DNA from: Escherichia coli O127:H6 str. E2348/69
GTDB taxonomy: Bacteria > Pseudomonadota > Gammaproteobacteria > Enterobacterales > Enterobacteriaceae
Reading direction: 5' to 3' (one strand)
Length of the DNA: 64,000 nucleotides
NCBI RefSeq assembly: GCF_000026545.1
Contig: NC_011601.1
Positions 1 through 1,258 of the stretch are shown here, in pieces. The notes under the pieces were generated by a model, which saw only the letters and a program-made list of their open reading frames with translations, was not told where the DNA came from and did no database searches. The stretch's first letter is position 1. Every line of letters starts with the position of its first letter. The position numbers and the translations under genes are program-made.

Positions 1-1258
1 GACACCTATTCACAACAAGTTTATTGCTGCACTTGTTGTAGAGAGTATTTGTAAAAACATTTTATGTCGCTAAATAACATGACGATTTCATTATGCATGT
101 TATTTATAAACAGCGACTAAACAGAATATTATTGCGAACAAGGGAAGTGTCAGGAAAGGTCAAGAGGTACTAATAGTTTATATGGCTATAAACATTAGCT
201 ATGGTTAATGTTTGCCTGGTGAAACTAACACCAAATTGCTGTAACCCTCTTTGAATCATAAACTGAAGGATGATGCAGCACAGTTCCTCGCGGACTATCC
301 TGGCTACTACATGACCAAACGCGGATATCATCCTCAAGCAGTCAACTCTGGCAATCTTTTTACTCAGCTATGAGGACCTGATCGTCGACTTTGCCATCTG
401 CATGATGAATCTCCTCAGCAGCAGATGCAGTATTTACCGAAATGAATCCCATGAATAATGCAGTAATTAGTAGTGCTTTCATATCTGATGCCTGTTTTAA
501 ACGATATATTTGGAAGTTGACGAATATCGGAAGGAGCTTCCTCCTTCTTGATCTGTAAATATACAGTTCTAAGCTGTCATAAGACTGACTGTCATATGAC
601 AACGTTGTCAGATTTTTGAATTTTTCGAATACAGATTCAGGTCGTTAATAACGCACTCAGGTTCTTCAGTAAGGGGCATATTGTCCATATCGAAAACCCC
701 ATCATTTTCGGCGTCTCTCAGTATGCACTTAGCCATGCAATGAAGGCACTGGAGGAAAGGTTAAATATCCGTCTCTTAACCCGAACTACCCGTAGCTTTC
801 TACCGAAACGGGAGGGAAGTCAGAAATCACAACGTATTGATTTATCTGTGTGTGGATGTGAATGGTGTGAAGTAAAGGACCTTCATAGGCAATTTAACTT
901 ATGTTGTATATGAATCTAGTTCATAAGATAAATCCGTAACACTCACTTGTTTTAACTTAATATTTTTAATAAAAAGATTAAGTTACTTCCAAATAGCTTC
1001 ATGAACTAGCTAAGAATGCGCTTCATCCAAGGCCTCCTGAAGGCGTTCGGGGATACAATTTAGGGAAGCCTCGAAATGTTGCTGCTCAGCAGCTTTTTCC
1101 ATCCAGTCCCGAAACTAGTTAGGGGTTACTCCATACATTGTTAAATGTCAAAATATTGATAAATGTTTTATAGATAACAGTAAGTTAGCCATATTTTTTC
1201 ATTGACCTTTCATTTGTGACGAAGCAAACTGACCTGAATAGTCGCATAGGGATGTCAT

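Follow-up and report, generated by a model that had tools for sequence, protein, structure and literature searches.

A LysR-type regulator relic and other gene fragments at the edge of a defence island beside dif in Escherichia coli E2348/69

Between the yde/fml (F9) fimbrial operon and hipA, the chromosome of the enteropathogenic strain Escherichia coli E2348/69 (EPEC O127:H6) carries a short plus-strand frame that reads like part of a LysR-family helix-turn-helix (HTH) domain. Is this frame the remnant of a real gene, and if so, what happened to the rest of it? The frame lies in the first 1,258 nt of the window, by which we mean the whole stretch of 64,000 nt that was analyzed. Positions 1–1258 are 100% identical to positions 2465459–2466716 (reverse strand) of the chromosome NZ_CP059840.2. 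The fimA-like major-subunit gene of the fimbrial operon is found on the minus strand with its start 168 bp before window position 1, hipA starts at about position 6682, and tus is reached at the far end, which places the window in the replication terminus region. The G+C content of 1–1258 is 38.3%, compared with 48.7% for the whole window. A preliminary description made from the letters alone saw gene fragments here of the kind left at island edges or rearrangement junctions, and this holds: there is an island edge at 898/899, and there are two deletion joints. The LysR scrap and its companions are ordinary pseudogene relics at a real island edge and have already been annotated publicly. The PGAP/RefSeq annotation lists the scrap as the pseudogene H4J01_RS12380 ("helix-turn-helix domain-containing protein," 710–823, plus strand), and the annotation of strain A25 names the same fragment "LysR family transcriptional regulator."

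The peptide read in the plus frame 710–820 matches the Pfam family PF00126 (LysR HTH_1) with 32.7 bits (E = 7.1e-8; gathering score 26.6), in agreement with the LysR HTH remnant proposed from inspection. The match is limited to model positions 24–55 of 60; it begins with the recognition helix and takes in the start of the wing. Helices 1 and 2 are absent, and the complete N-terminal winged HTH (PF00126) of a functional LysR regulator is therefore not found. A Pfam scan detected no C-terminal effector-binding domain (PF03466) in the window open reading frame (ORF), whereas this domain is present in the partial gene of strain CFT073, in the gene of strain LF82 and in the gene of Escherichia whittamii.

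By Pfam, blastn and PGAP the relic extends over 708–796 on the plus strand and represents codons 28 (partial) to 57 of a 297-codon gene. It keeps 29 complete codons and has no start codon and no effector domain. The lack of any start codon context had been pointed out beforehand and is now explained: homology begins at LysR codon 28, and the residues read in frame ahead of G29 translate antisense DNA from the tail of an SDR oxidoreductase gene. The extent first given, 710–820, stands only as far as 796. The last eight residues of the peptide originally read (FLPKREGS, 797–820) come from unrelated DNA past a deletion joint that is simply read through.

At the nucleotide level, 708–796 agrees in 88/89 positions with LysR of both CFT073 and LF82 (local blastn, E ~1e-39), and the flanks are syntenic, toward fmlA as well as toward hipA. 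At the protein level, 28/29 residues are shared with LF82, with an intact E. coli paralog and with A25, and 27/29 with E. whittamii. LF82 has the fullest version of the locus found. Its order is fimbrial operon, hydrolase scrap, SDR oxidoreductase gene (minus strand), LysR gene (plus strand), alpha/beta hydrolase, carboxymuconolactone-decarboxylase (CMD)-family protein, cupin, response regulator, frameshifted hydrolase and hipA. The LF82 LysR gene (LF82_RS07735; 6919–7812 in L093, the L numbers denoting extracted loci) lies between fmlA and hipA and is a full-length pseudogene of 297 codons with one TGA at codon 243. The relic resembles this pseudogene and the intact ortholog in the recognition helix and the start of the wing and differs from both in having lost helices 1–2, the effector domain and the start. 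We regard it as very probable that 708–796 is a functionless relic of a LysR-type regulator gene, one that would be neither translated nor regulatory and would be drifting neutrally.

How the rest of the gene was lost can be read from the relatives. A blastn comparison with CFT073 splits the region into the collinear window blocks 1–708, 708–796, 797–901 and 6576 onward. In LF82 (L093) the first three correspond to 5381–6088, 7001–7089 and 12073–12175, and window 6576–8000 corresponds to 12167–13590. The first missing segment, deletion (i), measures 912 bp; it begins within the SDR gene and ends at LysR codon 28. Deletion (ii) takes in everything between LysR codon 57 and a point ~100 bp to the left of dif, the XerC/XerD chromosome-dimer resolution site, and amounts to 4,983 bp relative to LF82. 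As CFT073 equals LF82 minus one 4,052-bp deletion, deletion (ii) shrinks to 931 bp if the starting state was CFT073-like. Microhomology at the two joints is 1 nt and 0 nt, i.e., they are essentially blunt. By blastn, window 797–891 is B2-lineage DNA whose usual place is immediately left of dif (L093 of LF82, from 12073 to the XerD arm of dif). The block of genes that strains of phylogroup-B2 type have between the F9 operon and dif–hipA, most of it still present in LF82, has been lost in the E2348/69 lineage through two deletions. The homology search recommended in the preliminary description has in this way traced each fragment to a relative and, via LF82 and CFT073, allowed the two deletions to be reconstructed.

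The exact E2348/69 allele was found in 5 of 5,426 complete E. coli genomes, namely three O127:H6 assemblies, A25 and one pig isolate. At least six deletion states exist among E. coli genomes, including the CFT073, MS 200-1/F11, 536, SF-088 and NC101 types; the locus decays fast, with very rapid allele turnover. The relic also differs from its relatives at one residue of the otherwise invariant SQSALS motif, where E2348/69 has Tyr33 and A25, LF82, E. whittamii and the E. coli paralog all have Ser33. A25 carries both joints and still retains Ser33; the Ser33Tyr change, which arose after the deletions, fits neutral drift. Among B2 strains LysR has been inactivated independently, by the nonsense codon in LF82, by an N-terminal deletion in the 95-3322/NC101 type (L094 4910–5602) and by a C-terminal deletion in the CFT073 type. 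The divergent SDR gene is often intact where LysR is inactivated.

No intact LysR gene was found at the syntenic E. coli site in the survey of the 5,426 genomes, which was not exhaustive, and the best copy is that of LF82 with its stop codon. The block is intact in E. whittamii Sa2BVA5, with genes for the SDR, a 297-aa (amino acid) LysR protein, hydrolase, CMD-family protein, cupin, sensor kinase and response regulator. It is 92–95% identical to LF82 at the nucleotide level, and its neighbor is an autotransporter gene, not the fimbrial operon. The E. whittamii LysR ortholog is intact and 94% identical. With a significant similarity, a full-length though inactivated copy at the syntenic site in LF82 and this intact ortholog, neither ground on which the preliminary description would have given up the LysR assignment (a non-significant match or the lack of an intact homolog at a syntenic position in any relative) applies. 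Divergent pairing with an SDR gene is a typical arrangement for LysR-type regulators. In a scan of one genome per species, the divergent SDR–LysR pair proved widespread in Enterobacterales (75–95% aa identity) and was never seen beside fml or hipA homologs. The E. coli copies with 86–87% identity are paralogous SDR–LysR pairs elsewhere, and an 87% identical LysR gene is located near ykgR–fdeC. NCBIfam gave no equivalog for either LysR or SDR; the best model for the intact LysR protein was YafC-like, with 157 bits against a cut-off of 470.

A further candidate, the K-12 gene yneL (b1506), was considered as the counterpart of the relic and rejected, as yneL is an AraC-type fragment on the other strand and the K-12 homology stops at window position 244. 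Both yneL and ECs2114/Z2199 of enterohemorrhagic E. coli (EHEC) resemble the relic in being HTH regulator relics in the same interval, from the yde/fml fimbrial genes to hipA. The K-12 gene (L004 6335–6537) is unlike the relic in family (AraC-type, HTH_18), in strand and in its unrelated sequence. The EHEC counterpart appears, in a paper on F9 fimbriae, as a cryptic AraC-like coding sequence between fmlA and hipA (PMC7766294). The dead regulator at this site differs between lineages, being an AraC-type fragment in K-12 and the LysR relic here. K-12 has also lost the fimA-like and chaperone genes and part of the usher gene, up to window position 10.

The second half of the question concerns the edge beside which the relic lies. 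Relatives without an island diverge right after ATTTAAC at 892–898, and chromosomal homology resumes at TTTAAC at 6576–6581; the insertion of an island between these points makes 898/899 the island edge. The chromosomal dif site is found on the minus strand at 6575–6602 and is identical in 27/28 positions to the E. coli consensus (as printed in PMC3025954). Comparison with island-free relatives identifies ATTTAAC at 892–898 as the outer 7 nt of the XerD-binding arm of dif and as the attL core at the left junction. TTTAAC was at one stage taken as a target-site duplication, and this was revised to the edge of the XerD arm, i.e., the att core. At the right junction, a 147-bp tyrosine recombinase fragment of 49 codons (6428–6574, minus strand) is annotated as a pseudogene by PGAP and is 94% identical at the nucleotide level to E2980 and 75% to G3/10. 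Intact islands at this site have two adjacent integrase genes, and the fragment corresponds to the second of them; it ends one base inside dif, at a joint without microhomology. The outermost base of the XerD arm is changed from T to G, and the deletion from inside the island integrase gene ends exactly there. The right junction of E2348/69 is a secondary deletion from the interior of the integrase gene to the last base of dif.

The islands of CX05, NB4833, F8704-2 and A25 are inserted at the same base, and each opens with a related end of ~135 bp. In the window this conserved end occupies 899–1030 and comprises the invariant blocks TTATGTTG, AGTTCATAA and CTTCATGAACT and a 16-nt AT-rich near-palindrome (953–985). 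Across five extracted loci (L002, L095, L096, L097, and L005) an AGTTCAT/ATGAACT inverted pair ~76 nt apart surrounds the near-palindrome, and TTTAACTTA is repeated at 893 and 951. The inverted pair and the TTTAACTTA repeats may be binding sites of a recombinase. The cargo of these islands differs, from a retron with PtuAB (Ec78-type effectors by annotation) and a helicase, to another Lamassu type, to a kinase with restriction genes. The insertion point recurs in six chromosomal contexts. In B2-type strains the shared core is the 7-nt ATTTAAC, and the attL sites of K-12 type have the 12-nt ACATGATTTAAC in common with the attR of G3/10. Read in the direction away from dif, the G3/10 element carries two tyrosine recombinase genes (453 and 496 aa), a gene for a 787-aa and one for a 147-aa protein, a type I restriction-modification system as cargo and finally the conserved end. 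Both recombinases belong to the Phage_integrase family, and the 787-aa and 147-aa products gave no family match. The element looks complete.

This organization is reminiscent of GInts. According to Bardaji et al. (2017; PMC5385486), GInts carry ginABCD at one of their ends, followed by cargo and, on the far side, a short conserved end; they insert with high site specificity and 6-nt staggered cuts, are flanked by short imperfect direct repeats of 10–17 nt, and need all four gin genes to excise as a circular intermediate. A survey reports them in 7.5% of Escherichia genomes. The paper by Bardaji et al. describes no E. coli insertion site. The G3/10 island resembles GInts in having four co-oriented genes at one end, cargo, a short far end and site-specific insertion, and the short core shared at the dif-edge site is compatible with the reported 6-nt staggered cuts. 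The likeness is one of layout, and the window copy is down to 49 codons of one recombinase. With less certainty than for the relic, we infer that a site-specific integrative island inserted after the relic had formed, at the outer edge of the XerD arm of dif and with ATTTAAC as the crossover core. Its layout would have been GInt-like, with cargo enclosed between an end that encodes two tyrosine recombinases, a large protein and a small one, and a short conserved end on the far side. The island would have brought a Lamassu system and a retron and would later have lost its recombinase genes by deletion.

As the island abuts dif, one could also suppose that it is a mobile element which exploits Xer for its integration (IMEX), integrated by the host XerC/XerD recombinases in the manner of filamentous phages and not by recombinases of its own. 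Inovirus-like prophages, the classical Xer-exploiting elements, do occupy the same site in MS 200-1 and E2980, and the second junction in E2980 retains only the central region and the XerC arm, as expected for Xer exchange. At the left junction of the E2348/69 island, divergence begins inside the XerD arm after 7 nt and not at the boundary between the arm and the central region. Inspection of the 28 bp there gave 9/11 matches for the XerD arm and only 2–4/11 for the XerC arm, so that dif-like sites are not found at both junctions. The intact relatives moreover encode two tyrosine recombinase genes and two further genes at the dif-proximal end. The island thus shares its location at dif with CTX-phi, TLC-phi and similar filamentous phages and differs from them in having junctions that are not hybrid dif sites and relatives that encode recombinases. 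We consider integration by XerC/XerD unlikely, though it is the alternative that fares best. The inovirus-like prophages at dif (MS 200-1, L010 4359–7302; E2980, L098 16748–22247) encode a zonular occludens toxin domain, a secretin and a rolling-circle replication protein. The E2980 prophage is situated between a full dif and a half site consisting of the central region and the XerC arm, as expected for Xer-mediated integration.

The locus is also a known hotspot for defence islands. Hochhauser et al. (2023; PMC10121019) list a hotspot, #20, which is flanked by hipA and ydeT, has no tRNA listed and was detected in 783 genomes and occupied in 62. In the text and tables of that paper, searched by the names of the flanking genes and not for the word "dif," the locus appears in the table row of hotspot #20 only, and none of the passages searched calls the site dif. 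Our locus has the same flanking genes, and its occupants are the Lamassu system and a retron relic here, and elsewhere a retron with PtuAB, another Lamassu type or restriction-modification. The difference is that the insertion point is here mapped to the outer edge of the XerD arm. Immediately to the left of ATTTAAC, the B2 DNA at window 874–891 carries GTGAAGTAAAGGACC, a ATGAAGTAA-type motif as seen at the right ends of islands. GTGAAGTAAAGGACC resembles ATGAAGTAAG / ATGAACTAAATGACC at the right ends of integrative islands, and K-12 lacks the motif. The motif may be the trace of an older island with the SDR–LysR block as its cargo. On the plasmid pWP2-W18-ESBL-08_1 (L005 8863–9000), upstream of Lamassu, a 5′ remnant of the first integrase gene (ginA), a right end, ATTTAAC and a left end are joined, an arrangement suggestive of a captured circle junction or of insertion in tandem. 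Stacking of elements may have left traces in the motif at 874–891 and in those E. coli plasmids on which right end, core and left end are joined. We tentatively propose, as an idea that might well prove wrong, that the hipA–ydeT hotspot islands form a GInt-like family which uses the outermost 7 bp of the XerD arm (ATTTAAC) as crossover core, that the core borne by the element regenerates dif on the hipA side so that new elements stack between an older right end and dif, and that the LysR/SDR block is decayed earlier cargo.

Could the relic still be of use? Its DNA might be kept for a role in cis, as a promoter, operator or H-NS-bound leader for Lamassu or the F9 operon, given the G+C content of 38%, the position between two transcription units and the temperature regulation of F9 expression, which is mentioned in PMC7766294. 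The Lamassu cassette nevertheless has its own 357-bp upstream region, 99.7% identical on plasmids without the LysR relic, and the conserved DNA on the fimbrial side ends at ~244. A promoter/terminator scan found no enrichment of promoter-like sites in 1–1300 (4 found against 4.5 expected), and the content of 245–900 varies freely among strains. A role in cis is for these reasons very improbable. We find it harder still to believe in a functional mini-gene, in which an in-frame ATG at 740 would open a 57-aa ORF ending at 913 and yield a small DNA-binding or regulatory peptide. Such an ATG and ORF do exist, and yneL at the same locus, which was once labeled "putative HTH regulator" and is now annotated as a pseudogene, could serve as an analogy. 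The ORF starts inside the recognition helix, however, without Pfam model positions 1–23, and hence encodes no complete HTH. There is no AGGAGG/GGAGG-type Shine-Dalgarno motif in the 24 nt upstream of the ATG, ORF codons 20–57 are non-coding DNA past the deletion joint, the allele is confined to the five genomes mentioned, and PGAP calls it a pseudogene. Least of all can the LysR resemblance be a chance match in AT-rich non-coding DNA, as short as the fragment is (29 codons, no start codon), in view of the Pfam score above the gathering score, the near-complete nucleotide identity to a LysR gene that is annotated at the corresponding place in the chromosome and the 27–28 of 29 residues shared with the four relatives.

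Some points weigh against the reading of a dead relic, formed by two deletions and later joined by a GInt-like island. For the deletions, one large event and a CFT073-type deletion followed by a smaller one both fit. Transcription or translation of the 57-aa ORF at 740–913 is formally possible. The GInt assignment draws on gene order in relatives, recombinase domains and site specificity, while the window itself keeps a 49-codon integrase scrap.

In itself the LysR relic carries little weight, being one of many scraps in a decaying accessory block and already flagged by RefSeq. Its use is rather as a worked example, in which five fragments from five genes are traced to intact relatives and the joints are placed to the base. 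Of wider interest is that the hotspot catalogued as hipA–ydeT is the dif locus and that the defence islands found there have a conserved end in common, their insertion being fixed to one point at the edge of the XerD arm. This gives a concrete starting point for testing how chromosomes and E. coli plasmids exchange defence cargo.

Other chromosomal genes have left fragments in the same interval. The preliminary description missed the alpha/beta hydrolase, BhsA-like and SDR tail fragments as well as the dif site. The first of these (257–364, plus strand) is an internal piece of an alpha/beta hydrolase, corresponding to residues 246–281 of an intact 365-aa protein of strain JML285 (tblastn, 69% aa identity, E = 7e-13); PGAP/RefSeq has a hypothetical-protein pseudogene at 257–355 (plus strand). 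The second (390–482, minus strand), annotated by PGAP/RefSeq as a "BhsA" pseudogene without its C-terminus, represents the first 31 codons, a signal peptide, of a gene of the YdgH/BhsA/McbA (DUF1471) family, the rest of which is lost. An intact counterpart of 83 aa, with 84% aa identity, is found in strain WW2, where its gene likewise adjoins an SDR gene. In WW2 (L091 4843–6008) the adjacent BhsA-like and SDR genes belong to an unrelated integrase-bearing island at selC (tRNA-Sec) and are ~75–85% identical to the window remnants; the two genes seem to travel together. The third fragment (608–708, minus strand), recognized from the collinear LF82 block, is the SDR oxidoreductase tail, comprising the last 33 codons and the stop of the gene that is divergently paired with LysR; the LF82 SDR gene lies at L093 5988–6770 on the minus strand. 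The hydrolase and BhsA-like fragments are common to CFT073 and LF82 and therefore represent older damage. K-12 shares only window 11–244, followed by yneL.

Two short inverted repeats, at 12–39 and 66–117, had been counted among the signs of rearrangement. Both are present, and neither is a rearrangement mark. The first is a perfect 9-nt repeat at 12–20/31–39 (ACAACAAGT / ACTTGTTGT, 10-nt spacer) upstream of the F9 major-subunit gene; it is kept in CFT073, A25 and MS 200-1 and has one change in K-12, at position 39. The second has a perfect 11-nt core at 71–81/96–106 and weaker outer arms at 66–70/113–117, which K-12 has not kept. In dinucleotide shuffles, perfect 11-nt inverted repeats with loops of ≤30 nt are rare, with a mean of 0.028 per shuffle. 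Window 11–244 is ~94% conserved even in K-12, where the adjacent fimbrial genes are deleted. As the repeats lie in fmlA upstream DNA that is conserved in K-12, they are not rearrangement scars and do not belong to the graveyard of gene fragments.

The island itself (899–6575, 5.7 kb) is imported. Window 892–5063 has a 99.8% identical counterpart on the E. coli plasmid pWP2-W18-ESBL-08_1, on which iss and tet(A) are found as well. A minus-strand fragment around 1000–1130 had been described as a protein C-terminus; it exists, although as an internal piece and within the island, not in the graveyard. Its peptide WMEKAAEQQHFEASLNCIPERLQEALDEAHS is read from the ORF at 1010–1102 and is identical in 31/33 positions to residues 44–76 of a 157-aa protein of plasmid pO111_1. 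Protein comparison places the fragment at 1016–1114 (minus strand), and the plasmid hypothetical protein from which it derives varies between 157 and 259 aa in length and has no Pfam or PADLOC family. Further right, at 1259–4663 on the plus strand, lies an intact Lamassu/ABC-three-component defence system with the LmuA effector, the LmuC middle component and the LmuB SMC-like ATPase together (PADLOC E = 2e-133, 1.9e-54 and 6.4e-176, respectively). All three match full-length PADLOC models, and the PGAP names agree. Cassettes that match the Lamassu operon plus 357 bp upstream with 99.8% identity occur on E. coli plasmids of ~100–160 kb, and about 64 plasmid records carry the cassette at ≥99% identity.

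The retron of the island survives as a relic at 5529–6061 (plus strand; Rfam and PADLOC). It consists of an msr RNA at 5529–5593 (Rfam RF00170, 79.9 bits, E = 6.7e-14) and a truncated reverse transcriptase of 133 aa at 5660–6061, which matches PADLOC RT_I-A over model positions 1–123 of 308. The relic is 88% identical at the nucleotide level to the intact retron locus of CX05, whose PtuA/PtuB genes are annotated as Ec78-type effectors. A complete retron would comprise msr/msd, a full-length reverse transcriptase and an effector; here the reverse transcriptase is truncated and, unlike in CX05, no PtuA/PtuB genes follow. An Rfam scan of 1–9000 returned the retron msr only. Neither the 100-aa nor the 82-aa ORF of the island had a Pfam match, and the 100-aa ORF had no PADLOC match either.

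Elsewhere in the window, an annotated yneK pseudogene fragment lies at 17482–17583, between ydeA and ptrR. Two further annotated scraps stand back to back between dcp and dgcZ, a YdeI-family gene without its N-terminus and a fragment of a 2-oxo-tetronate isomerase gene (24820–24909 and 24948–25028, respectively), which suggests another deletion scar.

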